A stretch of DNA of 64,000 bases from an uncultured Thermoplasmata archaeon (GCA_963804505.1 CAWDQP010000007.1:132826-196825), one strand, 5' to 3'; numbered from the stretch's first letter, positions 2,527 to 47,766 are shown. Program-made: numbers and translations. Notes: generated by a model from the letters alone, not told the origin.

Positions 2527-3183
2527 ATGGACGCGAACCCTACTAGACCGAAAGGGTACAAAGGTCTCCCGATGGAGGGAATGGTGGCCCGGCGGGACGC
2601 AAAGTTGCGTCGCTCCGGCAGCCAGATAGACGACTGGCGGAAGCAGGCGGCCCTACTTACCGCCGCTCTGCCGGATGGAGCCAGCATCCTCGAAGTGGCC
2701 CCGGGTCCAGGATACTTCTCCATCGAGCTAGCCCGACTAGGACGTTTCCAGATTACCGGTCTGGACATCAGCCGAACGTTTGTGCAGATCGAGGAGGAGA
2801 ATGCCCGACAGGCGGGAGCGAGCGTGACATTCCGGCTGGGCGATGCGTCCAGAATGCCCTTTGACGAGGCAATCTTCGATTTGGTGGTTTGTCAGGCCGC
2901 TTTCAAGAACTTCAGTCGGCCGGGCGAGGCAATCCAGGAGATGTATCGAGTCCTCCGTGAGAACGGCACGGCAGTGATTCAGGACATGAGAAGGGATGCG
3001 TCCGACGCATCGATTCACGATGAAGTGGACGCGATGCGCCTCAGTCGACTGGGCTCCTTCATGACGAGGCGGATCCTTGGGCGGCTCCGCCGGCGCGCAT
3101 ACACCATAGAGCAGTTTCGGCAGATGGCTGTCGCCAGCGCCTTCGGCGGATGCGAGATTACGGCTAGTTGGGATCGGTGTTGA
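2527..3183 (+). CDS. Class I SAM-dependent methyltransferase
   Basis: Intact 218-aa ORF with motif I ILEVAPGPGYFSIELA, then GLDIS and a post-I acidic residue, LGDASRMPF, and FDLVVCQAAFKNF. Confidence 0.85.
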   Translation: MDANPTRPKGYKGLPMEGMVARRDAKLRRSGSQIDDWRKQAALLTAALPDGASILEVAPGPGYFSIELARLGRFQITGLDISRTFVQIEEENARQAGASVTFRLGDASRMPFDEAIFDLVVCQAAFKNFSRPGEAIQEMYRVLRENGTAVIQDMRRDASDASIHDEVDAMRLSRLGSFMTRRILGRLRRRAYTIEQFRQMAVASAFGGCEITASWDRC

Positions 3184-3378: not shown

Positions 3379-3793
3379 ATGAAAGCTAGGGCCAAGCGAA
3401 GCACCGACTCTTCTTCCAAGCCACTTAAGGCGGGGCCTAAGGAGCTTCCCGATTGGCGTGGCGAGACGCTCGCCCGCCTTCGCCGGCTCATCCAAGAGGC
3501 CGACCCCAAAGTCGTCGAGGAGCGGAAATGGAAGAAGCCATCGAATCCCGCCGGCATTCCGGGTATGGTACCACAACGGGATCATTTGCACCGGCGAGAC
3601 GTACAAGGACCACCTGAGGCTAACCTTCGCAGATGGAGCTGCTGTCGAAGACCCGAAGAGCCTCTTCAACGCCAACCTTCAGGGCGTCACGCGAGCCATC
3701 GTCATCCATGAGGGAGACGAGATTGACGAGCCAGCCTTCAAGTCCCTTATCCGGGCAGCGGCGGCCTTGAACGCCTCCTCGGCCGCCGGATGA
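3379..3793 (+). CDS. DUF1801 (YdhG-like) domain protein, 1 apparent frameshift
   Basis: ORF 3379..3711 (LPDWRGETLARLRRLIQEADPKVVEERKWKKPSNPAGIP) joins ORF 3458..3793 (VWYHNGIICTGETYKDHLRLTFADG...) by a 1-nt change in the GGG run near 3560. Confidence 0.75.
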
Positions 3794-4059: not shown

Positions 4060-4067
4060 TTTTATTA
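4060..4067 (+). promoter_or_regulatory. TATA-box-like element upstream of the small peptide ORF
   Basis: TTTTATTA lies in the most AT-rich spot of the window and ends 22 nt before the ATG at 4090. This is archaeal spacing for a leaderless or very short-leader mRNA. Confidence 0.45.
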
Positions 4068-4089
4068 GGGGTAAAGAACTGTGGGATTC

Positions 4090-4206
4090 ATGGACCAAAA
4101 CGAGGGCCCGAAACCCTTCGTAATGACCTGGGCCACGCCGCTCGAGTTCACGGGGGGGAAGATCTTCCGGATCACCTCCGCGACCGAGCCCAGCGGCCCC
4201 GACTGA
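4090..4206 (+). CDS. Candidate RiPP (graspetide-type) precursor peptide, 38 aa
   Basis: Not in the supplied track (below length cutoff). ATG...TGA translates to MDQNEGPKPFVMTWATPLEFTGGKIFRITSATEPSGPD. 35 of 38 third codon positions are G/C, like the real genes here. It has its own TATA-like box and a downstream hairpin+T4, and sits 76 nt upstream of the ATP-grasp ligase on the same strand. Confidence 0.5.
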   Translation: MDQNEGPKPFVMTWATPLEFTGGKIFRITSATEPSGPD

Positions 4207-4224
4207 AGGAAACGGCCATCCCAC

Positions 4225-4255
4225 GGGCGGCCGCACACCGGCCGCCCAACCTTTT
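4225..4255 (+). terminator. Perfect 9-bp hairpin followed by a T4 tract (possible terminator/attenuator between peptide ORF and ligase)
   Basis: GGGCGGCCG-CACAC-CGGCCGCCC (4225-4247), then AAC-CTTTT (T run 4252-4255). Confidence 0.4.
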
Positions 4256-4282
4256 CATCCGGGGGGGCGTGGCTCGCGGACC

Positions 4283-5356
4283 ATGAAGCCCGTGGTCGTC
4301 CTGATCAGCGACGGGTCGGAGGAACACTGCCTCCGCGTAGGACGCGAACTCCGCCGACGGGGGGTCGAGCCGTTCGAACTCGACCAGCAGAACCTCTCGG
4401 CGACCTCGGTAAGGCTAACCCTGGGGGGACCGAGCTCCTGCGAGGGATCGCTCGAGTCGGCTGAAGGCCGGTCCATTCGAATCAAGGAGATCACCGCCGT
4501 AGCCTACTGGCCAACGTGGATCCAGGCCAACGTGCCCGGCATGAGCGCCGAGGCGCGCCTACTGGTGGAGGACGAATGGTATGCCTTCCTTGCCAACCTC
4601 GCCTTCCTGACCCCCCAGGCCCGCTGGGTGAACCCATGGTGGGTGCGAACGGCGGGGCATCCGAGACTCCACCAGCTCCGTCTCGCGCAGTCCCTGGGAT
4701 TGGCCATCCCCGAGACCCTGGTGACGAATTCGATCGATGAGGTACGGGAGTTCGTCGGCCGGTTTCCGAGCGGGGCGGCGAACAAGCGCTTGACCAACCT
4801 GCTTCGCCCGCTCCCGGGCCACGTAGTGCCGTCCACCCGTATCCTCACGACCCGAATCGACCCTGTCAAGCTGGCCGAGGCCGACCCGAACTCGGTCCGG
4901 TACGCACCCGTCTACCTTCAGGAATACGTTCCGAAGGACGTAGAGATCCGGGCCTACGTCGCCGGAGATTCCGTGCTCTCCGTGGAGATCCTCTCCCAGG
5001 AGGATCCGCAGACCGCGGACGATTGGCGGAACTATCCGGTGGCCCAGACCGCCGACGGTCCGGACCTCGACATTCGACGATGGAAGTGCCGGATCACGGA
5101 GCTGCCGGCTCACCTCAACCGCGCGATCATCGAGCTCACCCGTCAACTGGGGCTCTATTTCTCCGGGGTCGATCTCATCCGACGCCCGGATGGGAAGTAT
5201 GTCTTCCTGGAGGCGAACTACGGCGGAGCCTGGGCGTGGATCCAAGACATCACGGGCCTACCGGTTCTCGAACGATACACCGACCTCCTGGTCTCCGAAG
5301 GAATCCCGATACTCCGGGCGGAACCGCCCTCGACGGTCACCGACCGGAAACCCTGA
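4283..5356 (+). CDS. ATP-grasp ligase, MvdC/MvdD-like (ATP-grasp peptide maturase candidate)
   Basis: Intact 357-aa ORF. N-terminal pre-ATP-grasp pattern VVVLISDGSEEH...RRGVEPFELDQQNL, then ITAVAYW, HQLRLAQSLGLAIPETLVTN, DDWRNY, and GVDLIRRPDGKYVFLEANYGGAWAW. This resembles microviridin MvdD as I recall it; not HMM-verified. Confidence 0.7.
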   Translation: MKPVVVLISDGSEEHCLRVGRELRRRGVEPFELDQQNLSATSVRLTLGGPSSCEGSLESAEGRSIRIKEITAVAYWPTWIQANVPGMSAEARLLVEDEWYAFLANLAFLTPQARWVNPWWVRTAGHPRLHQLRLAQSLGLAIPETLVTNSIDEVREFVGRFPSGAANKRLTNLLRPLPGHVVPSTRILTTRIDPVKLAEADPNSVRYAPVYLQEYVPKDVEIRAYVAGDSVLSVEILSQEDPQTADDWRNYPVAQTADGPDLDIRRWKCRITELPAHLNRAIIELTRQLGLYFSGVDLIRRPDGKYVFLEANYGGAWAWIQDITGLPVLERYTDLLVSEGIPILRAEPPSTVTDRKP

Positions 5357-5376
5357 ACCGAAGCGGGCTGTGACCG

Positions 5377-6676
5377 ATGGGGTTCGACGGGAAGGACCGT
5401 CCCGCTAGCGCGGCCTGGGGCCGAAACTTCCCGCTCCTCTGTAGTGGCTCGGTCCTCTCGACGGTTGGAAACGCCGCCGGATACCTCGCGGTCCTGTGGA
5501 TCGTCTATGCGCGCACGGGCTCCGCTCTCGCTATTGCCGCGGTGGGGCTGGCCATCTTCGTCCCTACGATTACCTTCGGATTCATCGCCGGAACGCTCGT
5601 CGATCGCTATCGACGGGGTCACGTCACTAGCTCTGTCGTATTTCGGCGCCGCCGGGGTGATGGCGGTGCTACCTCTCCTCGTCGAATCTCGAGCGATCGA
5701 CCTCATCGGGGTCCTGGTCGCGGTCGCCTTCCTCGGGGCCCTCGGGAGCCTCCAGCGCTCCGCCGCCGCCGCGATACTTCCCGACCTGGTGGCGTCTTCG
5801 CGGCTCGCCCCCGCCAACGCCTACCTACAGGCCGGTACGATGATCGCGGTGATGGTGGGAAGTCCCGTGGGCGGCCTTCTCGTATCGGGAGGGTGGCTGA
5901 CGTACGCCTTCGTTCTGGGCGCCGCCGGTTTCGCGTTCGCCGGCACGGCCTCCTTCCTCCTCTCAGAGGGAGCCCGGCCTCGCGCTCCGGCGACCGAGGG
6001 ATCGAAGGAAGCGTCCGGTATACTCGCGGGGTTCTGGGAGGGCGTTCGATTTCTCCAGGATCGAGCGGCCCTCTTCCAGCTCACGATCGGTTCCACCGCT
6101 CTCAATTTCTTCTACAGCCTGTTCGTGATGTTCGGAGTCGTCTACGTGGCTCAGGGCCTCCACGCCTCGGCGACCGACTTCGGAGTCCTGCTTCTCGCGA
6201 ACAGCGCCGGGGTCGCCGCGGGTGGACTCCTCGTGAAGCCGCTGCGAGCGGATCGACGCTTCGCGACGGCGTATGTGGCCGCGGCGGGGGCCGCCGGATT
6301 CTGCGTGATCCTCGTGGCCCTCCTGCTGCGGTTCACCGCCGCGCTTCCTCTGTACGCAGCCATCGGCATCGGCGAGGGCGTCGCCAACACCGTGTTCATG
6401 ACCGGGGTCCAGCGAGCCGTACCGCCCGAGATGCTGGGCCGGTACTACAGCTTCGACGAATCGGTGAGCTTCGCTGCAATCCCGCTTGCCCAGGTGGCCG
6501 GGGGGGTGATCGTCTCGGTGGTCGGAATCACGGACGATTACCTCATTGCGGGGACGGGTACCGTGCTCGTCTGCCTCCTCCTGCTCCTGCTCCCCGGTGT
6601 ACGGGAGTTATCCGCCCACGGGGCGCCTCGAGTCGGCGCCGCGACGGCCGACGCGGGCGCCCGCTCGCGGGAATGA
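5377..6676 (+). CDS. MFS transporter (EntS/MFS_3-like), 1 apparent frameshift
   Basis: ORF 5377.. (NFPLLCSGSVLSTVGNAAGYLAVLWIVY...LVDRYRR) continues in ORF 5444..6676 (multi-TM, ...LLLLLPGVRE) after an indel near the GGGG run at 5615-5620. Starts 20 nt after the ATP-grasp stop. Confidence 0.85.
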
Positions 6677-6994: not shown

Positions 6995-7399
6995 TCACTG
7001 GCTGGCGGGCATGATCGTGAGCTGGTGGCCGTCCGGGTCGACGATCCCGGCGAACCATCCCCACGGTCGCTTCGTCGGTGGGGAGGCGAATCTTACCCCG
7101 CGGGCCTTGAGCGCGGCGCAGCCGGCCCGGAAGTCACCGGGAAACTTCAGTTCGATTCCGGCGATCCCCGGTTCCGGGCGCTCCGGTATACCGACCTCCG
7201 AGGTCTCGCAGAGGTGGATGAGCCCGCCTCCGCCCTTGCGTCCTACCGTGACCCAGTGGCCCATGTCCTGCACGAGGTCCAGACCCAGCGTCTCGGTATA
7301 CCACGCGACCGACCGCCGGCGGTCGGCGACCACCAGGGTCGTCGAGAAGAACGCGACCTTCGGGATTCGCGGGGACCTCGGTTTCTTGCTTCGCGGCAT
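6995..7399 (-). CDS. VOC/glyoxalase-family protein with a basic N-terminal tail
   Basis: Intact 134-aa ORF with DRRRSVAWYTETLGLDLV...GIELKFPGD...GWFAGIVDPDGHQLTIM. Paralog of 50076..50486. Confidence 0.85.
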   Translation of the reverse strand: MPRSKKPRSPRIPKVAFFSTTLVVADRRRSVAWYTETLGLDLVQDMGHWVTVGRKGGGGLIHLCETSEVGIPERPEPGIAGIELKFPGDFRAGCAALKARGVRFASPPTKRPWGWFAGIVDPDGHQLTIMPASQ

Positions 7400-9843: not shown

Positions 9844-10393
9844 GAGGAGACCACGGGCTTACGTCCGATTGAGCCTTGCGCCCAGCGCCGGGACGCTCGA
9901 GACGCCGTACGGTTGCCTTCGCGCCGGTTTGGCGCACTCGGTTACCCCGACGGCCGATGTCAGGGCATGGTACCGGGCGGAGACCCCGAAGAACCGGGGG
10001 GCGAGCGCCACCGGTCGGCGCGGAGACCGCAGGGCCTGCCAGCGGGGGTGTCGGGGGTACGGAGTACCCCACGGGTTCGACCTGCAGCGACTTCGGCTTG
10101 ACCCGGACTTGGATCGTTTCGGATTTGGGCGTAATGAGGTTCCAACCGCCCTTGAGAATGGAGGCACCGACAAGGTATTCGATGCCGAGGAACGTGAACG
10201 CTTCGAGGAACCGGCCGTTGAAGGTGATATTGAACGAACCGTTACCGCCCCCGCCGGTGGCATGGACGACGTTGTACGTGCCGGAGGGGGGAGACTGCGT
10301 GTATTCGTACGCCTGGTAGAAGCCGAACAGGAGTATGCCGAGACCGATCGCCAGCAGCGCCGTACCTATCGACTTCTCGTATGCGCGATCCAT
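9812..10393 (-). CDS. Hypothetical membrane protein; 3' end uncertain
   Basis: Internal ATG of ORF 9812..10588: MDRAYEKSIGTALLAIGLGILLFGFYQAY (TM), a second hydrophobic segment FTFLGIEYLVGASIL, and an Arg-rich tail suggesting a frameshift. Confidence 0.5.
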   Translation of the reverse strand: MDRAYEKSIGTALLAIGLGILLFGFYQAYEYTQSPPSGTYNVVHATGGGGNGSFNITFNGRFLEAFTFLGIEYLVGASILKGGWNLITPKSETIQVRVKPKSLQVEPVGYSVPPTPPLAGPAVSAPTGGARPPVLRGLRPVPCPDIGRRGNRVRQTGAKATVRRLERPGAGRKAQSDVSPWSPRVGDVLHAVR

Positions 10394-10536
10394 CGGGGCG
10401 AACCTCTGCGGGTCCCCTTCTTCAATCCTCGTGTGGACTCGTTTCGCGGGAGACGACGAAGCTCGAGGTGCCAAAGCGGGACCGACAACGGGTTTCCGGC
10501 GACCCTCAAATGGAAGGACTGGATGGCATCGGACGG

Positions 10537-11508
10537 ATGACCGTCCGCCGATCGGTGCTCGACTGGTTGCGCGAGCCGTCGCAGCCATCCATGCAGGTGC
10601 TCGCCCTCACGGACCTGCTCGGCCGAAATGCGTCCGATAAGATCGTTCGGCCCGCCCGTCAAAACCTGACGCGGACCGGCTGGGCCGCCGATCTGCTCGC
10701 CGAGCGCAACGCCGAGCACGCATGGGGCGACCCGAGCCACCTGTACGGTCCGAAGTACCACGCGACCAACTGGAAACTTCTCGTGCTGGCGGACCTCGGC
10801 GTGACGCGCGAGGACGATGCGGTCCGGCCCTCCTCCGACCTCTGGCTCAACGCCTTCGCCCGCCCGGACGGCGGGTTCGGTACCAGCGGCCGGAACAGTC
10901 ACGTGTGCGTGACCGCGAATACCGCGCGCGCCCTCGTGCGGTTCGGCTACGAAGACGACCGCCGGGTACGGAGCGCGTTCGACTGGCTGGTGGACGACGC
11001 CGACCCCAAGGGAGGATGGTCGTGCTACGGGTCGGGCCGCCTGCTCGACACGTGGGAACCCCTCAGCGCCTTCGCCGCGCTGCCCCGGGCCCGCTGGACG
11101 GCCTCCGCGCGAGCGTGCGTGGAGCGGGGCGCCGAGTTCTTTCTCCAGCGCGAGCTCCACCGGCAGGGCACGAGCTACCGACCCTGGTCCCGGACGCACT
11201 ACCCGTTCCACTACTACTACGACATGCTGGTCGGGCTCGACTGCCTGACCGCGCTCGGCTACGGGAACGATCCTCGCCTCGGATACGCGCTCACTTGGCT
11301 CAAGAAGAAGCGGCGACCCGACGGCCGATGGAACCTGGATGCGATCCACCCGGATGTCGAAGGCGGCATGGCCAAGTGGTACCGCGCCCATCCCTACCAG
11401 AAGCCGACCCCGTTCGGCCTCGAGACCCCGGGGAAGCCCAGCAAGATGATCACGTTCCTCGCGGCCCGCGTGCTCGCGCGGGTCGACCTCGCTTCGAAGG
11501 GTTCGTGA
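10537..11508 (+). CDS. Prenyltransferase/squalene-cyclase-repeat (alpha/alpha toroid) family protein
   Basis: ORF 10381..11508; likely start at ATG 10537 (or 10510). Repeated DGGF/GGW motifs (RPDGGFG, DPKGGWSC, RPDGRWN). About 45% identical by eye to 44275..45243. Confidence 0.7.
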   Translation: MTVRRSVLDWLREPSQPSMQVLALTDLLGRNASDKIVRPARQNLTRTGWAADLLAERNAEHAWGDPSHLYGPKYHATNWKLLVLADLGVTREDDAVRPSSDLWLNAFARPDGGFGTSGRNSHVCVTANTARALVRFGYEDDRRVRSAFDWLVDDADPKGGWSCYGSGRLLDTWEPLSAFAALPRARWTASARACVERGAEFFLQRELHRQGTSYRPWSRTHYPFHYYYDMLVGLDCLTALGYGNDPRLGYALTWLKKKRRPDGRWNLDAIHPDVEGGMAKWYRAHPYQKPTPFGLETPGKPSKMITFLAARVLARVDLASKGS

Positions 11509-20481: not shown

Positions 20482-22224
<1,743 letters not shown>

Positions 22225-28009: not shown

Positions 28010-28083
28010 AGCCACTGGAGGGACTTGAACCCCCGACCTGCTGATTACGAATCAGCCGCTCTGCCAGACTGAGCTACAGTGGC
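28010..28083 (-). tRNA. tRNA-Thr (anticodon CGU)
   Basis: Hand-folded cloverleaf: acceptor GCCACTG/CAGTGGC, D stem GCTC/GAGC, anticodon stem GCTGA/TCAGC, loop TTCGTAA, T arm GGGGG-TTCAAGT-CCCTC, discriminator U. Confidence 0.9.
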
Positions 28084-30169: not shown

Positions 30170-32152
30170 GATCCCGCGGGACGGCCGGGCGGCGAGGGCG
30201 GAGCGCCCAGGACCGGGGCCTCCTCCCCAGACCGGCTGGTGGCGTGGACCATCGCCGCCAGGCGCCCGAGGAGCGACTCCTTCTGCGCGCCCTGGCCCTA
30301 CCAGAGCGTACTTGAGCACGTCTCGAAGGGTGCGCACCGGGATGACCTCGATGACGCCCGCGGTAGCGCGACTCGAGCACGAGGTCCTCCACGTTATCGG
30401 CGGGGATCAGCACCCGCTTCAAGCCCGAGTCGGCAGCCGCCTCGACCTTCGCGGTCACGCCTCCGACGGGAGGACCTGCCCACGGACGGAGAGCGAGCCG
30501 GTCATCGCGCAGCCCTGGTCGACCGGCACCCCCTCGAGCGCGCTGATCACGGCGGTCGCGATCGAGACCGAGGCGCTGTCACCCTCGACCCCGTCGGACG
30601 TGCCGACGAACTGGATGTGGATGTCGTAGCGGGAGATGTCCTCGCCCGTGTACTTCTTCACCAGCGCGCTCACGTTCTGGACCGCCTCCCTGGCGATCTC
30701 CCCGAGCTTCCCGGTCGCGACGACGACCCCGCCGTCCCGGGTCTGGGCCGGGGTCACCTCGGCGACGATCGGGAGGACGATACCCGAGAACTCGGACATG
30801 CCGGACTGGGCGTTGATCGCGGCGAGGCCGTTCACGATGCCGACCGCGGACCCCTCGGTCGAGAACATCCGGTACTCCTTGCGGCGCTCGATGTAGCGGT
30901 CCGCGATCTGCTGCTCGAGCGAGCGGCTCGCGCGCTTCGCCTTCACGACCTGCTCGGCGTGGACGATCGGAAAGCCTTCGGAGAGCGCGATGTCGCCCGC
31001 GACGCGGACCAGCCCGCCGAGCTCCCGGAGGCGGAGCGTGAGCTGCCCCGAGCGGCCCGCGCGGCGTTGGGCCTCGCGGATGACCTCCACGATCGCCTCG
31101 CGGTCGAAGTGGGGGATCTTGCGGTCCTTGAGGACCTCCTGCGCGATGAAACGGACGATCTTCAACCGGTTCTCGGGAACGTCCGGCATGGTCGTCTTGA
31201 CGTAGAGCTCGTAGCCGTACCCGCGGATGCGCGAGCGCAGCGCCGGGTGCATCGTCTGGACGCTGTCGACGTTGCCGGCGGCGACCAGGACGAAGTCGGC
31301 CGGGACGGGCTCGGTCTTGACCATCGCCCCCGCCGACCGTTCGGACTGGCCCACGATCGAGAACTTCCGCTCCTGGAGCGCGGTCAGGAGCGAGTGCTGG
31401 CTCTCGATCTTGAGGAGGTTGATCTCGTCCAGGAACAGGACCCCGCCGTTCGCCTTGTGGATCGCGCCGACCTCGACCCGCTCGTGGGGAGGGGTCTCGA
31501 GCCCGCCGGACTGGAACGGGTCGTGCTTGACGTCACCGAGCAGCGCGCCCGCGTGCGCCCCGGTGGCGTCGATGAACGGGGGCTTGTCGTCGGGCGAATG
31601 CGAGACGAGCAGCTTCGCCACGCCGGGCCGGAATCGCTACGTCCGCCGGAGAACCGCGAGATCGCGTAGATGAACACGACGATCAGGACGCCGAGGAGCA
31701 GGGCGGTCAGGTCGTCGGTCGTGAGCACGATGTAGAGGACGACCGCGAAGACGGCGAGCGCGATGACGATGAACAGGATCGTTCGCTGCTCCTTCTTCTG
31801 CGCCGCCTCGACCTTCTGGGCGGCGACGATCTCCTTCCCCTTCCCCGCCGGGACGACCCGGATCTTCGGCTCGTTCGGGTCCTCGGTGTTCGGGTAGGCC
31901 AGGATGTCCTGGAGCTGCTCCTTCGGGCAGGAAGTCGACCATCGCCCGGGCGAGCATGCTCTTCCCCGTCCCCGGATCGCCGATCAGGATCATGTGGCGC
32001 TTCTGGGTCGCCGCCTTCCGGGCGACCTCCACCGCCTCGTCCTGTCCGATGACCTGCTCGAGGAGTCGGGGCGGGACCTCGACGTCGGCGCTCGACTGGT
32101 AGGGAAGGGTCTTCCCCCACGCGTCCAGCTCGCTGTGCGGCGAGAATGTCAC
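30166..32152 (-). CDS. lonB: Archaeal membrane-bound Lon protease (LonB), at least 4 apparent frameshifts; start uncertain
   Basis: Frame pieces: [32 protein letters not shown]; a TM insert ([17 protein letters not shown]...); ORF 30455..31621 ([12 protein letters not shown]..., [14 protein letters not shown]...[14 protein letters not shown]); then [21 protein letters not shown]. Start is the GTG at 32152, or the ATG at 32190 with another indel. Confidence 0.9.
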
Positions 32153-32395
32153 CGGAGTCGCCCGGACGGTGTTTCCGCTCCCTCTTCCATGACGGCGGCC
32201 CGACCCTGCGTGAGCGGGAATCGATGCGCCGTGGCTTCTAGACGGGGGCCGGTATAAATCCTCTCGGTTACGCGGCTCCGATTCGGTGGCGCGGACGTCC
32301 CGGGCCCCGCCGTTCACGCCCCGTCGCTCACCTTCGACGACTGTCCGGCTCGCCCGTTATCTATCGAGGGGGGCTCGGCCGCGCTCGGAGCGGAG

Positions 32396-35553: not shown

Positions 35554-36107
35554 ATGACGGCGCCGCGGGCGAGCCCGACGTTCTCTGCCGTCGGCGTCCG
35601 CCGGCTCTTCGCCTACAACCGCGCCGTCTTCGACCGGTACGTCCGGCGCGTGCGCCGGCTGCCGTGGAAGACCGCGAGCCGCCGCGGGGGATCGGCCACG
35701 AATCGCTGTTCGACACCCTCGTCCACATCCTCAACGTCCACGAGGTCTGGCTCGTGTACATCGTTCGGGGACACAACTCGGACAAGGAGCTCGAGCCGCT
35801 GTTCAACGACCCGAGCCGCCATCCCAAGAACTGGAAGGGCTTCGACACCTACTCCCGCCGCGTCTGGGCCGGGGTCGACGAGACCCTCGAGGGTCTCACA
35901 CCCCGGGACCTCGAGCGCCCGGTGAAGGCGTTCTGGATGCCCGGCCGCTACACGCTCGGCGATGCGCTCGTTCAGACCACGTTCGAGCAGGCGCACCACC
36001 TCGGCGAGATCATCGGCGCGCTCTGGCAGGACGACCTCGAGCCGCCGGAGATGACCTGGCTCGACACGAACCGCGCTCTGGCCGCGCGGCGCCGCCGCCG
36101 GACCTAG
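35554..36107 (+). CDS. DinB-family protein, 1 apparent frameshift
   Basis: ORF 35554.. joins ORF 35664..36107 (LFDTLVHILNVHEVW..., FEQAHHLGEIIG) near 35680. Confidence 0.7.
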
Positions 36108-37821
36108 GCCGCCCGCTCGGCGTCCGCCCGCTCGAACTCGTCGCGAAGGCGGATCCGCCGGCGCGTCCGGTGGTACGTGACCGCGAACCGGTGCGCCTCG
36201 TCGCGGACCGCGCGCAGGAGGAGCATCGGAGCGGTGTTCGGGTTGGGTCGCATCGGCTCGGCCCGGTCGGGTCGGTAGATCTCCTCCTCGCGCTTCGCCA
36301 GCCCGATCGCCGGAAGCTGGTCCCCGAGACCGAGCGCCGCGAGGCTGGATACGGCGGCGGCGAGCTGCCCGGCCCCGCCGTCCACGACCAGGAGGTCCGG
36401 GAGCGGCTCGGACTCGGCGAGACGTCGGCGGTAGCGCCGCTGGACGACCTCGGCGATCATCGCGAAGTCGTTCATCCCCGGGACGTTCCGGATCCGGAAA
36501 CGTCGGTATTCCGAGCGCTGCGGCACGCCCCGCACGAAGACCACGAGCGAGCCGACGGCGTCGGACCCCTGCAGGATCGAGATGTCGGTCCCCTCGATCC
36601 GGCTGGGGAGGGTCGGGAGCTCGAGCAGCGACTGGAGCGCGGCCAGCACCGAGCGGGGCGGGGGGCGGGCGACCACCTGGTCGACGGTCGCCCGGGCCAG
36701 GCGCTCGGCAAGGCCGGCGAGCGCCGCGTACCGGCCCGTCGGCCGGAACTGGACCTCGATGCCGCGCACGCCGAACAGCTCGTCGACGGTCGCGTCGATC
36801 CCGGCGGGACGGGGACCGGCGATGTAGATCCGGTCGGGAAGCTCGAGCCGGCCGCCGTAGGACTGCGTCAGGAACTGGCGGATCACCTCCCCGGGCTCGG
36901 GGACGTCGTCCGCGGGGATCGTGACGAGGTGGGGTTCGGTGTGCCGGACCTCCCCGTCCTCGACCCGGACGAGCCCGACGGCCACGCGGAGCGTCGACGG
37001 TTCCGTCGGATAGGCGAGGCCCAGGACGTCCGCGCGCCCCGTGCCGGAGCCGATCACGGACTGCCGCTCCGCGAGCGCTCCGAGCCCTTCGAGCGCGTCC
37101 CTCAGGAGGGCGGCCCGCTCGAACTCCTGCTTCGCCGCGGCGCGGCGCATCTCCTCCTCCACCGTCGGCCGTACGGTCGCCACCTGTCCGCGGAGGATGT
37201 CGACCGCGCGGTCGACGTCCTTTCGGTACGTCGCGGCGTCGATCGCGGCCGACGCACGGGGCGCTGCACACCCCGAGGTGGAAGTACAGGCAGGTCTCCT
37301 TCGGGAGCCGCACGCACCGGCGGAGCCGGAACAGGTCCGCGAGCAGGCGCTCCACGGCCCGGGCCTCGCGCACGCTCGTGTACGGGCCGAAGAGGAGGAG
37401 CCCCGCGCGGCGCTTCGGCCGGCGGACGAGGAGGATGCGGGGAAACTCCTCGTGGAGCGTGACCGCGAGGTAGGGGAAGCTGCGGTCGTCCTTCAGGAGG
37501 ACGTTGTACGGCGGCTGGTACTGCTTGATGAGGCTCGCCTCGAGGAGGAGCGCCTCGCGTTCGGTTCGCGTCGGGACGAACTCGACGCTCGCGCTGCTGG
37601 CGACGATCGAGCCGTCCTTCTCGATCTTCGCGCGCAGATGGTCGAGGACGCGTCGGCGAAGGCTGCGTCGCCTTGCCGACGTAGACGACCTCGCTGCCCG
37701 CGGACCGGAACAGGTACACCCCCGGCAGGTCGGGGCCCGCCCGGAACCCCTCGCGCGTGGCGGCGGCCAGCTGGCTCGCCGGAACGAACGACGGGAGCTC
37801 GAAGCGCGCGCGGTCGGTCAT
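36104..37821 (-). CDS. uvrC: Excinuclease ABC subunit C, at least 3 apparent frameshifts
   Basis: GIY-YIG N-terminus ([19 protein letters not shown]) from ATG 37821; a middle part in ORF 35613..37373 (FPYLAVT..., [13 protein letters not shown]); and the C-terminal 359 aa in ORF 36104..37183. Confidence 0.9.
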
Positions 37822-40666
37822 GCCCGCGCGCGCGGGGCCGCCACGACCGGGGGTCGAAGGAGCGGTGCGAGGAAGCGGCCGGTGTGCGACCGGGGCGACT
37901 TCGCCACCGACCTCGGGGGTTCCGGCGACGACCACGTGGCCGCCGGCGTCCCCTCCTTCGGGGCCCAGGTCGATCAGCCAGTCGGCGCTCTTCAGGACGT
38001 CCAGGTTGTGCTCGATGCACGACGATCGTGTTGCCGCCCGATCGGAGCCGGAACAGCACCTCGAGCAGCTTCTGCACGTCCGCGAAGTGGAGGCCGGTGG
38101 TCGGCTCGTCCAGGAGGAACAGCGTCCGTCCGGTCGGCGGCTTCGAGAGCTCGAAGGCGATCTTGATCCGCTGGGCCTCGCCGCCCGAGAGCGTCGTCGC
38201 ACTCTGGCCCAGGCGGACGTAGCCCAGGCCGACGTCCTTGAGCAGCTGGAGCCGCGAGGCGATGCGCCGGTGGTTCTCGAAGAACCCGAGCGCCTCCTCG
38301 ACCGTCATCGCCGAGGACGTCGGCGATCGTCTTCCCCTTGAACTTGACCTCGAGCGTCTCCGAGTTGAACCGCTTCCCGCCGCACTCCTCGCAGACGACG
38401 TAGACGTCCGGGAAGGAAGTGCATCTCGTAGCGGAGGACGCCGTCGCCCTCGCACGCCTCGCACCGACCGCCCGCAACGTTGAAGCTGAACCGGCCCGGG
38501 GCGAACCCGCGCGCCTTCGCCTCGGGCAGGCCCGCGAACAGTTCCCGCACGGGGGTCATGATCCCCGTGTACGTCGCCGGGTTCGAGCGCGGCGTCCGTC
38601 CGATCGCGGACTGGTCGATCAGGAGCACGCGGTCGAGCGCGTCGATCCCCTCGATGTAGTCGTGACGGCCCGGGGCATCGCGTCCGACGCCGAGGTGGCG
38701 GCGGACCGCCTTGTACAGGATCTCCTCGAGGATGGTCGACTTGCCGCTCCCCGAGACGCCGGAGAGCGCGACCATGACGCCGAGCGGGATCTGCACGTCG
38801 TCCCCCTTGAGGTTGTGCTCGCGAGGACCGTGGATCGTGAGCCACCGGCCCGCGGGCGGGGCCCTTCGATCCGGTACCGGGATCGACCGGCGCCCGGAGA
38901 GATACTCCGCGGTCAGGGACCGGGGGGTGCCGACGATCGCGGCGGGCGTACCCGAGTACAGCACCTCGCCGCCGTGGACGCCGGCGCCCGGGCCGAGATC
39001 GATCAGCCAGTCGGCCTCGCGCATCGTCATCTCGTCGTGCTCGACGACGAGCAGCGTGTTGCCGAGGTCCCGCAGCGTCTTCAGGGTCGCGAGGAGCCGC
39101 GCGTGGTCACGCGGATGGAGCCCGATGGACGGCTCGTCCAGGATATAGAGGACGCCCACGAGCCCCGAGCCGATCTGGGTGGCGAGCGCGATCCGCTCCG
39201 CCTCGCCGCCCGACAGGGTGCCGGAGGCGCGGTCGAGCGTGATGTACGTGAGGCCGACGTTCTCGAGGAACCCGAGCCGGGCCCGGATCTCCTTCACGAC
39301 CTGCCCGACGATCTGCTGGTCCCGTTCGAGGAGCGGCAGGTCGCGGAACATGGCGGCGGCGGTGTCGACGGTCATCGCGGAGACGTCCGCGATCGAACGG
39401 CCCTCGACCGTCACGGCGAGGCTCGCCGGCTTGAGGCGGCGGCCGGCGCACGACCGGCACTTGACGAACGACATGAACCCGAGATAGTACTCCTTCGCGC
39501 GCTCGCTCTTGGTCGCCTTCCAGCGCCGCTCGACCGAGGCGACCAGCCCCTCCCGGAGCCAGCCGGTCGACCACCAGTGGCCCGGCCCGCGGACGCCGGG
39601 GCCGATCCCGCGCTCCGAGCCGTACATCAGCGCCTTCCACCCCTTCTCCGACAGCTGGCGGACCGGCTTGCGAAGGTCGTAGTCGAACGCCTCCGCGAAC
39701 CGTTGCAGGCCCGCGGCCTCGGGGGTGAGTCCCCAGACCGAGATCGCCCGCCCGAGGGGCTTGTCCTTGTCCGGGACGATCCGCTCGGGGTCGGCGTGGA
39801 GCGTCGCACCGATGCCGAGGCACTCCGGACAGGCGCCCATCGGATTGTTGAACGAGAACATGCGCGGCGTGAGCTCCTCGATGGAGAAGCCGCAGCGGGG
39901 GCAGGCCCGCCGGCTCGAGAACGTCGTGCGCTCGGAACCCGGACGCCGCAGCACGACCAGGCCGTCTCCCGAGCTGGCGTGCGAGCGCGACGGACTCGGC
40001 GAGGCGGCTCGCTTCCTCGCCGGCGACCTCGATCGTGTCGACGACCACCTCGATCGTGTGCTTCTTGTTCTTCTCGAGCCGGATCTCGCGGCCGGGGAGC
40101 CGGATCTCCACGCCGTCGATCACGAACCGGCGGTATCCCGATTTGCGCAGCCGCTCCATCACGTCGCGGTGCTCGCCCTTCATCGCGCGGACCACGGGCG
40201 CGATCACGTCGACCTTCTCGCCGCCGGCCTCGCGCCGCACCGCCTCGACGATCCGGTCGACCGACTGCGGCGCGATCTCCTCACCGTCGTTCGGGCAATG
40301 CGGGATGCCGACGCGGGCGTACAGAAGTCGGAGGAAGTCGTAGATCTCGGTCACGGTCCCAACGGTCGAGCGCGGGTTGCGGCTGCCGGCCCGCTGCTGG
40401 ATCGCGATCGCCGGGGAGAGGCCTTCGATCGAGTCGACGTCCGGCTTGTCCATCTGGCCGAGGAACTGGCGGGCGTACGACGAGAGGCTCTCGATGTACC
40501 GCCGCTGCCCCTCGGCGAAGAGCGTGTCGAAGGCGAGGGAGGACTTTCCGGATCCGCTCACGCCCGTGATGACGATGAACTTCCCCCGGGGAAGGTCGAG
40601 CGAGACGTCCTTGAGGTTGTGCTGGCGCGCTCCCCGGATGCGGATGGCGGTGCTCGCTTCGGCCAT
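37818..40666 (-). CDS. uvrA: Excinuclease ABC subunit A, about 5 apparent frameshifts
   Basis: [48 protein letters not shown]... (ORF 39107..40726); ORF 38305..39954 (Zn modules, [20 protein letters not shown], second GVSGSGKST); then pieces with LSGGEAQRI and [10 protein letters not shown]. The inferred stop overlaps the uvrC ATG (ATGA). Confidence 0.93.
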
Positions 40667-44160: not shown

Positions 44161-44234
44161 GCCGCGGTAACTCAGTTTGGGAGAGTGCAAGACTGAAGAT
44201 CTTGAAGCCGCCGGTTCAAGCCCGGCCCGCGGCA
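44161..44234 (+). tRNA. tRNA-Phe (anticodon GAA)
   Basis: Hand-folded cloverleaf: acceptor GCCGCGG/CCGCGGC, D stem ACTC/GAGT, anticodon stem CAAGA/TCTTG, loop CTGAAGA, T arm GCCGG-TTCAAGC-CCGGC, discriminator A. Confidence 0.92.
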
Positions 44235-44274
44235 CCTTCCCCCGGCTGACCGGCCGGAGGGCGGGGATCGTTCC

Positions 44275-45243
44275 CTAGACCCGCCCCGCTCGCTTCAGTG
44301 CCACGAGGGCGGTCGTGGTGATCCACCGGCTCGGAGAGCCCGGGGGCTCGAGCCACATCGGGTAGAACGGGGGCTTCGGGCGGTAGTTCGGGTCGTCCGA
44401 GTCGGGATGGACGGCGTCCAGGTTCCACGTGCCGTCGTTGTTCCTCCGTGCCTCGAGCCGGTCGAGCGCCGGTCGGATCCGGCGGTCGTCCCCGTACCCG
44501 AGCGCCGTGAGAAAGTCAAGGCCGACGAGATAGTCGTAGTAGTAGTGCACCGGATAGTGGAGCCGCAGCCACGGGGCGTACTCGCGCGGGCCCTCCCGCA
44601 ACAGTCCCCGGTCCAGGTAGAACTCCGCCCCGCGCTCGACCGACCGGTCGACCGCGCGCGACCGGAGGCTCGCGGGGAACGAAGCGAACGCGGCCATCGC
44701 CTCCCAGCCATCGAGCGTCCCCGTGCTCGACCGGAAGCAATGCCAGCCGCCGTCCTTCTTCTGGTGCCGAACCAACCAGTCGATGGCCCTGGCCAGCTGG
44801 GGCTCGTCGAGCCGCCCGAACTGGACGAGCATCCGGACGGCGTTGCCGGTGAAGCAGACCTCGCTCTCCTTCCCTCCGAAGCCTCCGGACGGCCCGCCCA
44901 TCCTGCGGACGAACAGCCGGAGCGCCTTCGCGATCCGGGGGTTCGTTCCGGGCACACCGAAATCCGAGAGGACGATCAGGCGCCAGTTCGTGGCGATGTA
45001 CTTGGGGCGGTAGAGCTCCGGGCCGGTCGTTCCGGCCGTGTCCCAGTGGCCCTCGGGGTGCTGCTCCTCGAGCATTCGGGCGGCCCAGCCGGCTTTGCCG
45101 ATCTCCTTCCGCGCACGGACAACCTCCGGATCGCTCGCCGACCGGTCGAGGAGCGACGTCAGCACGCGGAGCCGGATGCTGGGGTCCGCTCCCTCGAGCA
45201 GCCATCTCCTCAGGCGGGCCGGGACCGTCACGCGCCGCCCCAA
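44275..45243 (-). CDS. Prenyltransferase/squalene-cyclase-repeat family protein (paralog of 10537..11508)
   Basis: Intact 322-aa ORF sharing blocks with the paralog: PKYIATNWRL, GGFGG, KKDGGWHC, RGAEFYL, HYPVHYYYDYLVGLDFLTALGYG, and NDGTWNLDAVHPD. Confidence 0.75.
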   Translation of the reverse strand: MGRRVTVPARLRRWLLEGADPSIRLRVLTSLLDRSASDPEVVRARKEIGKAGWAARMLEEQHPEGHWDTAGTTGPELYRPKYIATNWRLIVLSDFGVPGTNPRIAKALRLFVRRMGGPSGGFGGKESEVCFTGNAVRMLVQFGRLDEPQLARAIDWLVRHQKKDGGWHCFRSSTGTLDGWEAMAAFASFPASLRSRAVDRSVERGAEFYLDRGLLREGPREYAPWLRLHYPVHYYYDYLVGLDFLTALGYGDDRRIRPALDRLEARRNNDGTWNLDAVHPDSDDPNYRPKPPFYPMWLEPPGSPSRWITTTALVALKRAGRV

Positions 45244-46433: not shown

Positions 46434-47766
46434 TTACCACCCCCGCTCGAGGATCGACACGGTCACCGCCGAACCGGTCCCCGCGTGGCTGTGGATCGCC
46501 CCGCGTCGGGCGTCCTTGATCTGGAGCGTCCCGTCGCCGAAGTGGCGCCGGATCGTGCCTTGGAGCTGCCAGAACGCGAAGACGCCCTGCATCAGGCCGG
46601 TCGCGCCGACGGGGTGGCCGCACGCGATGAGCCCTCCGGACGGGTTGACCGGGATCTTCCCGGCTTCGGGCACGTTCAGCCCGTAATCGATGTTCTTGAG
46701 GAACGGCGCCCCCGAGAGCGTGAAGTCGTACCCTTCGCCGTACTTGCAGAGCCCCAGGTCTTCGTACGTCTGGATCTCGCTGGACGCGTAGGCGTCGTGG
46801 AGCTCGATGAAATCGAGCTCCTTTCGCGGGTCCTTGATCCCCGCCATCCGGTACGCCTCGATCCCCGCCGCACGACCGGCCCGGAACGAATGGACGCCGG
46901 GGTAGGGGAGGTTCTCGTAATCGCTGGCCTTCTCGTGGGGATGGAGCGGGACCTTCCCGAACGGCCGGTCGGCGAGTCGCATCGTGTCGGTGCCGCAGCC
47001 GACCCCGACGACCCGCACCGGGCGGTCGGTGAACTCGCGGGCGCGCGACTCGTCGCAGAGAACGGCCACGGCGGCCCCGTCGGACATCGTGCAGATCTGG
47101 TCGCGGGTCAGCGGGTAGGAGATCATCTCGGAGGCGAGGACGTCGTCGACCGTGACCGGCTTCGGGTACTGGGCGTACGGGTTGTGGAGCGCGTTGCGGT
47201 GGTTCTTCACCGAGACCCAGCTCATGATCCGCTGACCCTCGGCGATCGCCAGCCGCTGCGCCTCGCGCTCGTCCTTCACGTGAGCGAACTTTCCGAGGCG
47301 CAGGTACTCGTAGATGTGGCGTACGACCATCAGCGCGTAGTAGCCCGTGTAGAACCCGCCGAGCGGGAAGTCGAAGTTGGTGTCGGAGCGCGAGCGCGAT
47401 GAACTCGTTGCCCTTCCACGTGGCCACGCGGCTCATCGTCTCGAAGCCCGCCGTGAGGCAGACGTCCATGCGGCCGCTCGCGACCGCCTCGTACGCGGCC
47501 TGGAAGCACTCGCCGCCGGTGGCCCCGCCCCACTCGATCCGGACCGAGCCCTTCGGGTTCATCCCGAGGTAGTCCTGGACCATGCTCGCGGCCTTGAGCT
47601 GGCGGGAGAAGTGGTCGGAGAAGTAGGAGATCCGCGTCCCGTCGATCCGGTCCTTCGTCAGGTTCGGGATCCCCTTCAGGGCGTAGTCGTACGCGCGCTT
47701 GACCATCAGGCGGAAGTCCATCGCCGGATGGGCTTTCGCGAACTTGGTCACCCCGCCCGTGACCAT
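46434..47766 (-). CDS. Thiolase-family acetyl-CoA acetyltransferase (archaeal/SCP-x type), 1 apparent frameshift; start uncertain
   Basis: N-terminal VYMVTGGVTKFAK...GGATGGECFQAAYEAVASGRMDVCLTAGFE shifts near 47340-47400 into ORF 46434..47330 (CTMSDGAAVAVL, ELHDAYASSE, NPSGGLIACGHPVGATG). Confidence 0.88.

Follow-up and report, generated by a model that had tools for sequence, protein, structure and literature searches.

Introduction

Graspetides are peptides made on the ribosome and modified after translation (RiPPs) in which an ATP-grasp macrocyclase, guided by a leader motif, links Thr, Ser or Lys residues of a C-terminal core to Asp or Glu, as in the microviridins. A leader signature for these peptides, 'Phhx(1,2)h', was derived by Makarova et al. 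2022 (PMC8939145), who also predicted archaeal precursors in Methanolacinia, Methanoculleus and Haloarcula. A 2026 RODEO survey (PMC13097080) found group 36 only in Thermoprotei and reported that group 7 biosynthetic gene clusters often carry a drug-efflux transporter; all characterised graspetides in its Table S3 are bacterial. The present work concerns a locus at positions 4060–6676 of a 64,000-nucleotide (nt) stretch of DNA, hereafter the window, from an uncultured Thermoplasmata archaeon (GCA_963804505.1 CAWDQP010000007.1:132826-196825). Very probably, this is a compact graspetide-type biosynthetic locus comprising a promoter, a precursor gene, a hairpin, an ATP-grasp macrocyclase and an exporter of the major facilitator superfamily (MFS).

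A first-pass annotation, made by a model from the window's sequence, had proposed such a locus and suggested that it would be a new class, without a characterised archaeal counterpart. Our literature search likewise found no characterised archaeal graspetide, in agreement with Table S3 of PMC13097080, although archaeal clusters had already been predicted in silico. The idea of a new class has to be narrowed: the locus very probably belongs to a known RiPP class, of which it is a new member and probably a new group, and is not a new kind of system.

The ATP-Grasp Ligase

The ligase gene is an uninterrupted reading frame of 357 codons beginning 76 nt past the stop of the precursor gene, as first described, and the sequence motifs quoted for it are present. 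Against NCBIfam, the protein matched three RiPP-maturase models over its full length, namely TIGR04187 GRASP_SAV_5884 (E = 3.9e-43), MvdC (3.5e-41) and MvdD (4.1e-31), with RimK at 8.1e-6 and LysX at 0.11. Expressed in bits, RiPP maturases reached 108–148, against 25.4 for RimK (cut-off 143.4), 11.6 for LysX (cut-off 275.6) and 35.5 for MptN. A phmmer search of all Protein Data Bank (PDB) sequences returned graspetide macrocyclases only, comprising MdnB (5IG8, 3.5e-28), AMdnB (7M4S), MdnC (5IG9), CdnC (7MGV), PruB (9BOU) and PsnB (7DRM), with no sequence match to RimK or LysX.

The predicted structure leads to the same enzymes. From an alignment of 60 sequences, AlphaFold2 gave a confident model (predicted local distance difference test score 91.4, predicted template modelling score 0.88); in a Foldseek comparison of this model with the PDB, the same six graspetide enzymes occupied ranks 1–32 (E from 1e-26 to 1e-16), RimK and LysX following from rank 33 on at E ~1e-14. 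Across the 60 homologues, including the window protein, K168, Q213, R223, D247, R249, D297, E310 and N312 are invariant, and the catalytic and Mg/ATP-binding residues are intact, their roles being assigned from general knowledge of ATP-grasp enzymes. Judged by its sequence and predicted fold, the ligase falls within the MvdC/MvdD/PruB/CdnC/PsnB family of peptide macrocyclases; the early view that it is MvdC/D-like is upheld by the agreement of NCBIfam, PDB sequence and Foldseek matches, and it does not cluster with RimK, LysX or GshB.

An Archaeal Ligase Clade

The closest ligases (P0002–P0006) are 52–59% identical to the window protein and are encoded on short metagenomic contigs. At the ligase locus, the genome of the window is absent from the GTDB species representatives. 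A first scan gave bacterial relatives only, at 30–35% identity, and an alignment-based scan added a Thermoplasmata metagenome-assembled genome (MAG), L091. In a neighbour-joining tree of ten archaeal-context ligases and the 60 best non-archaeal matches, with 200 bootstrap replicates, the ten were monophyletic in 200/200 replicates and the six closest formed a subclade at 99%. The nearest relatives outside are bacterial, an example being P0009, which lies beside FtsA, FtsZ and Ddl and is accompanied by Frankia_peptide precursors. Within the clade, the contigs carry archaeal markers: thermosome (L001), ribosomal protein L15e (L002, L005), deoxyhypusine synthase with a presenilin-type signal peptide peptidase (L119), Ta1207 with thermopsin (L123) and GvpD (L126), in addition to the L091 MAG itself. 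Because of these neighbouring genes and the monophyly in the tree, the ligase clade is archaeal.

The Precursor Gene and Its Homologues

Each related archaeal ligase gene that was inspected, in about eight archaeal lineages, has immediately upstream of it an open reading frame (ORF) of 29–47 codons homologous to the 38-codon ORF of the window (L122, L002, L003, L005, L116, L118, L001, L119, L091, L123 and L126/127). Among close pairs of these genes, the ratio of nonsynonymous to synonymous polymorphism (pN/pS) is 0.14–0.35, and wherever lengths differ they do so by a multiple of three, which argues that the ORF codes for a protein. Comparison across these loci marks it as a conserved coding gene under purifying selection and a constant companion of the ligases in this clade. 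The leader and the Lys, Thr, Ser, Thr, Glu and C-terminal Asp positions are kept beside orthologous ligases, as the precursor assignment of the first-pass annotation would lead one to expect.

The ORF and its translation were found as first reported, and the count of third codon positions occupied by G or C (GC3), 35 of 38, was reproduced. It had been likened to that of the real genes in the window; in the ligase gene, no 38-codon stretch reaches 35 in any frame, and in-frame stretches average 30.7 with a maximum of 34. Since homologous precursors share an MD... N-terminus, their start codon being sometimes GTG, the start was placed at ATG 4090 rather than at the upstream GTG 4081. The peptide is not strictly unannotated, as had been claimed, for a protein collection already lists it as a called protein of 38 aa, P0121. 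An independent assembly derived from short reads (L006, SRR28022942), 99.9% identical to the window over 2.4 kb, agrees with it over the entire ORF, including the run of seven G residues at 4152–4158 whose accuracy had been questioned, and thereby upholds the reading frame.

Direct searches with the peptide were uninformative. Extended to 41 aa, it returned only itself from an index of 5.8 billion proteins, and phmmer against 1.84 billion representatives gave no small homologue, only spurious multi-stretch matches to long repetitive proteins. A single 38-aa query being too weak, homologues were sought through ligase neighbourhoods instead. In keeping with several RODEO heuristics, the precursor lies on the same strand as the synthetase at less than 300 nt (76 nt upstream), ends in Asp and matches the donor expression. 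The features of the locus and the homologous precursors are collected in Table 1.

Table 1. Features of the graspetide-type locus in the window and precursor peptides encoded beside related archaeal ligases (positions of the latter refer to their own contigs)
Feature	Position	Strand	Sequence	Remarks
TATA-like box	4060–4067	+	TTTTATTA	Putative promoter; ends 22 nt before ATG, centre ~26 nt upstream
Precursor peptide gene	4090–4206	+	MDQNEGPKPFVMTWATPLEFTGGKIFRITSATEPSGPD	38 aa + stop
Putative leader recognition motif (K8–P17)	4111–4140	+	KPFVMTWATP	Clade-wide pattern P-[FL]-[VLA]-[ML]-x-[WG]-[AS]-x-P
Predicted 15-residue core (K24–D38)	4159–4203	+	KIFRITSATEPSGPD	Follows G-[GST] doublet
Hairpin	4225–4255	+	GGGCGGCCG/CGGCCGCCC	Perfect 9-bp GC stem, loop CACAC, then AACC-TTTT; putative terminator, attenuator or 3'-stabiliser
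Graspetide-type ATP-grasp macrocyclase	4283–5356	+		357 aa; NCBIfam, PDB phmmer, Foldseek, invariant residues, tree
MFS transporter (DHA3/EntS/MFS_3-like)	5377–6676	+		Putative exporter; Pfam MFS_1 8.4e-27, MFS_3; NCBIfam TIGR00900 5.9e-33
Main-group precursor, L122			..DEGAKPFVLLWSRPAVVVEGTKMKYTSATEGTGGPD	
Main-group precursors, L002, L003, L116			MDESPRPFVMKGARPAPVVEGSKIRITSGTEISGGGD; ...SKVRITSITEISGGGD	Second sequence from second copy
Main-group precursor, L005			...SKIRITSATEAFGSAD	
Main-group precursors, L118			...SKMKITSVTEAYGSSD; ...SKIRITSGTEISGGAD	
Distant precursor, L001	1578–1697		MDADENQVQPFVMEWAQPNVEMKGPYAYIVSVGCAYMTS	
Distant precursor, L119	2193–2282		MEPLLMDWAEPPMEPVEAMPTEIGDGYVP	
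Distant precursor, L091	2513–2623		METLKEADRPFALNWLEEIEKPLRGMLDCWTERACG	
Distant precursor, L126/127	1299–1442 (L126), 924–1067 (L127)		..ADVPFVLNWLEVDNRPLARCEDTWTEMACG	
Distant precursor, L123	4802–4933		MSGNTDLPFALNWADSRESRNLSGATECAPDEPGVDLCNTYFT	

Leader and Core of the Peptide

The patch KPFVMTW, which the first-pass annotation had singled out as leader-like, is part of a leader motif kept in about ten distinct archaeal precursors, with PFVL, PFAL, PFVM and PLLM as variants in relatives and M in the window where PFxL has L. Near their N-termini the archaeal precursors carry P-F-[VA]-[ML]-x-[WG], and the wider clade pattern (Table 1) fits 'Phhx(1,2)h'. The closest counterpart of the leader is the actinobacterial group-11/SAV_5884-type RPFALNYARPA, not the microviridin motif PFFARFL with which it had been compared.

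Downstream of the leader, all seven main-group peptides retain a Lys, T-S, T-E, a Gly and a C-terminal Asp, giving the core pattern K-x(2-3)-[IY]TSxTE-x(4-5)-D. The distance from Lys to the C-terminal Asp is 14 in 7/7, and the core always has 15 residues. Relative to the other main-group peptides, that of the window has gained a Phe before ITSxTE and lost a Gly after it, which leaves the spacing unaltered and suggests a constraint on the length of the whole core. K24, T29, S30 and T32 are candidate donors and E33 and D38 candidate acceptors of the predicted rings, and the G-[GST] doublet before the Lys may represent a GG-like cleavage site. As noted earlier, the core differs from TxKxPSDxxEE; it has no match among the published motifs checked.

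In the more distant archaeal loci, whose ligases are 35–54% identical, the leader is kept and the cores are different. Sister sub-families with a PF[VA][LM]xW leader have unrelated cores such as ...PLxR..D.WTE[MR]ACG, which contains two Cys, ...ECAPDEPGVDLCNTYFT, ...PMEPVEAMPTEIGDGYVP and ...VEMKGPYAYIVSVGCAYMTS, some of them with a single acidic residue or a Cys-Gly end. A frameshift as the origin of the odd core of L001 was ruled out, as no alternative frame contains an ITSxTE-like core.

Copy number also varies among these loci. A single precursor gene and a single ligase gene are present in the window, with no second copy of either in 64 kb. In the L002/L003/L116/L117/L118 lineage, two different precursor genes lie between a pair of ligase paralogues that point in divergent directions. 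These paralogues are of types P0005 and P0004/P0003, about 50% identical (L002 3–2437; L003 2–1962; L116; L117; L118). An inverted precursor cassette in L003, L117 and L118 was considered and rejected, for the locus on these contigs is the same one viewed from its opposite side, both precursors lying between divergent ligase paralogues.

Putative Promoter and Hairpin

The TATA-like box, found at the distance from the ATG that had been reported, is one of just three A/T-only 8-mers in the 64-kb window, whose G+C content is 65%. Homologous precursor genes have AT-rich boxes about 34–46 nt upstream. The spacing of TTTTATTA fits a leaderless or near-leaderless precursor transcript, for which the box would be the putative promoter.

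Past the precursor stop, the perfect inverted repeat GGGCGGCCG/CGGCCGCCC (4225–4247) is followed by AACCTTTTC, so that the hairpin and its T4 run are as originally described. It is unique in the window and folds locally with a free energy of -21.3 kcal/mol (z = -4.8 against shuffles); the intergenic region as a whole is unremarkable (z = -0.84), and what is informative is the hairpin taken locally and the fact that it is conserved between loci. Each of the seven main-group precursor genes is followed, 15–25 nt past the stop, by a 9–10-bp GC hairpin with an AACC[TC][TC]TTC tail, built from one of two stems, GGGCGGCCG...CGGCCGCCC or GGAGCGGCC-TTCG-GGCCGCTCC. The structure having been conserved while the stem sequence changed, the hairpin is argued to be functional. 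With just four T in its tail, the hairpin was missed by a generic scan for bacterial terminators; neither that scan nor the accompanying sigma-70 promoter scan is informative for an archaeon.

No separate AT-rich box accompanies the ligase gene, whose start lies within 27 nt of the T-run. The most economical reading therefore appears to be partial read-through, or stabilisation of the 3' end of a short precursor transcript.

Transporter and Assembly Quality

The MFS gene starts 20 nt past the ligase stop, as stated in the first-pass annotation, but is not the single open frame that its coordinates implied. Its 1300 nt contain a +1 frameshift near 5625, with the first 83 codons in frame 1 (to ~5624) and the rest in frame 2, caused by an extra C in GTCACGTCACTAGC. 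If this lesion were real, the locus could be a decaying, non-functional remnant. This is improbable, though it fares better than the other alternatives considered below: the independent assembly L006 lacks the extra C and encodes an intact 432-aa product, both the precursor and the ligase gene are undamaged and show codon bias, and frameshifts in the window affect essential genes as well. Because such genes are frameshifted, LonB being spread over three reading frames (30455–32356, minus strand; Walker A region 31640–32356, transmembrane region 31501–31983, protease 30455–31621), the window assembly seems to carry many indel errors of the kind typical of unpolished long reads; the MFS frameshift is consequently most likely an assembly error. 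Truncated-looking ORFs were also observed for UvrC, UvrA and thiolase (36104–37183, 38305–39954 and 46434–47330).

The corrected protein (432 aa, against 439 aa for the MFS protein of L126) shares 26% identity with the pumps of L126 and L091 across some 390 residues. Transporters are adjacent in five lineages, as an MFS gene downstream (window, L126/127) or upstream (L091) or as an ABC gene upstream (L119, L123).

Proposed Biosynthetic Route

On these grounds, and by analogy with the enzyme family, the following route may be envisaged. Transcription of the precursor gene would start from the TTTTATTA box and probably yield a leaderless mRNA, and at the hairpin and T4 run part of the transcripts would pass into the ligase and MFS genes, or the short transcript would be stabilised, leaving the precursor in excess over the enzyme. 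The ligase would dock on the leader KPFVMTWATP, which corresponds to PFFARFL of the microviridins and to PFALNYARP of group 11, and use ATP to form acyl-phosphates on the core carboxylates of E33 and/or D38, the latter offering its beta and C-terminal carboxyls. Capture by the hydroxyls of T29, S30 and T32 and/or the amine of K24 would then close between one and three rings, macrolactones or macrolactams, in KIFRITSATEPSGPD. A protease acting in trans, whose gene lies outside the locus, would cut off the leader close to the G-G|K junction, and the MFS pump would export the product. The latter may serve as a protease inhibitor, an antagonist or a signal.

A bolder proposal, compatible with the evidence but unlikely, goes further. 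In it, the locus would found an archaea-specific (Thermoplasmata) graspetide group with unusually short precursors of 29–47 aa and a 15-residue core whose topology is not seen in bacterial graspetides, for instance a Lys24-Asp38 macrolactam spanning the core, suggested by a K-D spacing that stays at 14 in spite of internal indels, together with an inner Thr/Ser-Glu lactone, and would provide the first experimentally tractable archaeal graspetide.

Points Against and Alternative Explanations

Several observations weigh against assigning the locus to the graspetides. The NCBIfam scores of the ligase are far below the curated equivalog and subfamily cut-offs (148 versus 350 bits for SAV_5884), and it has therefore been placed in the broad RiPP-maturase clade rather than in any named equivalog; Pfam gave no significant match, the best being R2K_3 at E = 0.15. 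The precursor peptide has no match at E <= 1 in Pfam and NCBIfam, and matches none of the known graspetide precursor models PF12559, PF14404, PF14406–PF14409 and TIGR04186. Its core contains just two acidic residues and leaves the RODEO acceptor expression [DE]x0-3[DE]x0-3[DE] unmatched, while the donor expression is matched. A leader peptidase is absent from the locus, the MFS gene is frameshifted in the window assembly, and L001 and the L002-type relatives have no adjacent transporter. The nearest relatives with two precursors have two ligases where the window has one, so that the lone enzyme of the window may form just some of the links. The ring chemistry itself is a prediction.

Two further explanations concern the substrate and product of the ligase, and both are very unlikely. 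In the first, the peptide would be a LysW-like carrier to whose C-terminal Asp carboxylate the ATP-grasp enzyme ligates an amino acid, with no internal rings. LysX and ArgX act on LysW, and RimK on RpsF; LysW/LysX systems occur in archaea, RimK and LysX are the next-best structural relatives of the ligase in the Foldseek ranking, and the main-group peptides all keep the C-terminal Asp. Yet the LysX and RimK models lag far behind the RiPP maturases (0.11 and 8e-6 versus 1e-43), neither enzyme appears among the PDB sequence matches, and the peptide bears a leader-type PFxL motif in place of a zinc ribbon or LysW-like domain. No LysY/Z/J/K-type genes lie nearby, and the sister sub-families end in ...ACG, ...YVP or ...YFT, which are not acidic.

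The second, equally remote, would make the enzyme a pheganomycin PGM1-type or other non-cyclising ligase that couples the peptide to a different building block. The ATP-grasp enzymes that occur with small peptides have diverse functions, pheganomycin-like loci having been discussed by Makarova 2022 (PMC8939145), and the scarcity of acidic residues in the core would suit such a role; the full-length similarity and fold, including the N-terminal pre-ATP-grasp domain, are nevertheless those of macrocyclases, and the neighbourhood has no genes for a non-ribosomal building block.

Least probable of all is that the small ORF acts as a cis-regulatory attenuation leader controlling a ligase whose true substrate is encoded elsewhere: although a hairpin and T-run follow the ORF directly, 27 nt before a ligase gene without its own TATA-like box, it is the amino-acid sequence itself that is conserved (pN/pS as above; leader and K/T/S/T/E/D kept down to 52% ligase identity), its leader motif matches known graspetide leaders, duplication has given two different precursor copies in relatives, and the 64 kb contain no second ligase or other candidate precursor. 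The interpretation as a graspetide-type locus is largely supported.

Genomic Setting

The window encodes an archaeal-type EF-1alpha, 94–95% identical to that of several Thermoplasmata MAGs, and a domain search also recognised the archaeal LonB and an eEF1A-type C-terminal domain; for these reasons, the host is identified as an uncultured Thermoplasmata archaeon, of a soil type. A methyltransferase (2527–3183) and a DUF1801-like ORF (3379–3711) upstream of the locus, and a glyoxalase (6995–7399) downstream, are not conserved beside related ligases and were rejected as cluster members.

Elsewhere in the window, a 580-aa protein (20482–22224, minus strand) matches Peptidase_M2, the angiotensin-converting-enzyme family, from end to end (E 2e-212). 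To our knowledge, this is an unusual family for a Thermoplasmata archaeon. Two ORFs (10381–11508, plus strand; 44275–45243, minus strand) show weak or presumed similarity to SQHop_cyclase_C (terpene-cyclase/prenyltransferase-like), and a similar ORF occurs in L091 (50–1024), upstream of its MFS-precursor-ligase locus; these probably represent a lineage-typical family outside the cluster. Three tRNA genes are present, Ala-CGC (1848–1920), Thr-CGT (28010–28083) and Phe-GAA (44161–44236), the first of which abuts an FMN-reductase ORF ending at 1857.

Significance and Comparison with Known Systems

Archaeal RiPPs have been very sparsely explored, and this locus is a candidate for the first archaeal graspetide that is both well supported and tractable by experiment. 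Together with its counterparts in about eight related archaeal lineages, it forms a clean test set that combines short precursors, one or two ligases, a common leader and diversified cores. Such a set would make it possible to ask whether graspetides are produced in archaea, what ring topologies occur there and how leader recognition was preserved following an apparently ancient transfer between bacteria and archaea; at their short length, the precursors are accessible to chemical synthesis. The locus extends the known class and leaves the understanding of that class unchanged.

Among known systems, the alpha-L-glutamate ligases RimK, LysX and MptN share the ATP-grasp fold and are the next-best structural neighbours (Foldseek E ~1e-14, template modelling scores 0.6–0.76). 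The window ligase is set apart from them by model scores of 25, 11.6 and 35.5 bits, respectively, versus 108–148 for RiPP maturases, and by the lack of PDB sequence matches to them.

The archaeal loci predicted earlier (group 7 in Methanolacinia, Methanoculleus and Haloarcula; group 36 in Thermoprotei) resemble the window in having an archaeal host, an ATP-grasp ligase and a small predicted precursor. Their precursors differ, as in MNEHILLNKAFRYSEP...KKADIETGEDLKGE, and the Thermoplasmata ligases form a clade of their own. In the portions of the PMC8939145 and PMC13097080 supplements that were available, there was no PFVM-type leader, ITSxTE-type core or 'Thermoplasm' entry, which does not prove absence, and RITS, TSATE and TSGTE matched only in unrelated sequences.

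Microviridins (group 1; MdnA with MdnB/MdnC or MvdC/MvdD) use enzymes of the same family as the window ligase, MdnC being among its top Foldseek matches. They follow the same logic, with a leader helix motif, a C-terminal core, links from Thr, Ser or Lys to Asp or Glu, which are predicted ones in the window, and a transporter. The MdnB and MdnC pair is echoed by those relatives of the window that have two paralogous ligases. In contrast to microviridins, the window has a single ligase and lacks the TxKxPSDxxEE core, the PFFARFL leader, a GNAT gene, the ABC-type MdnD/MdnE and a match to Inhibitor_I10 (PF12559).

The closest described relatives are the actinobacterial graspetides of group 11, the SAV_5884 type (prunipeptin; PruB, 9BOU; precursor cluster 2 of PMC8939145). 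Differences are clear: the window ligase is only about 30% identical to them and scores 148 bits against a family cut-off of 350, the precursor has 38 rather than about 63 aa and no Strep_pep/TIGR04186 match, its core reads K..ITSxTE....D where group 11 has ...TTSTAGSKTHFDD, and the host is archaeal with an MFS gene adjacent. Nonetheless, each has a single ligase and a precursor ending in Asp, TIGR04187 is the best NCBIfam model of the window ligase, and PruB is among its top Foldseek and PDB matches. The group 11 leaders MQPFALNYARPA and MRPFVLKYVLPA (supplement of PMC8939145) are strikingly close to the archaeal RPFVMKGARPA and to KPFVMTWATP of the window, a likeness that agrees with SAV_5884 as the best ligase model and with PruB as a top structural match.

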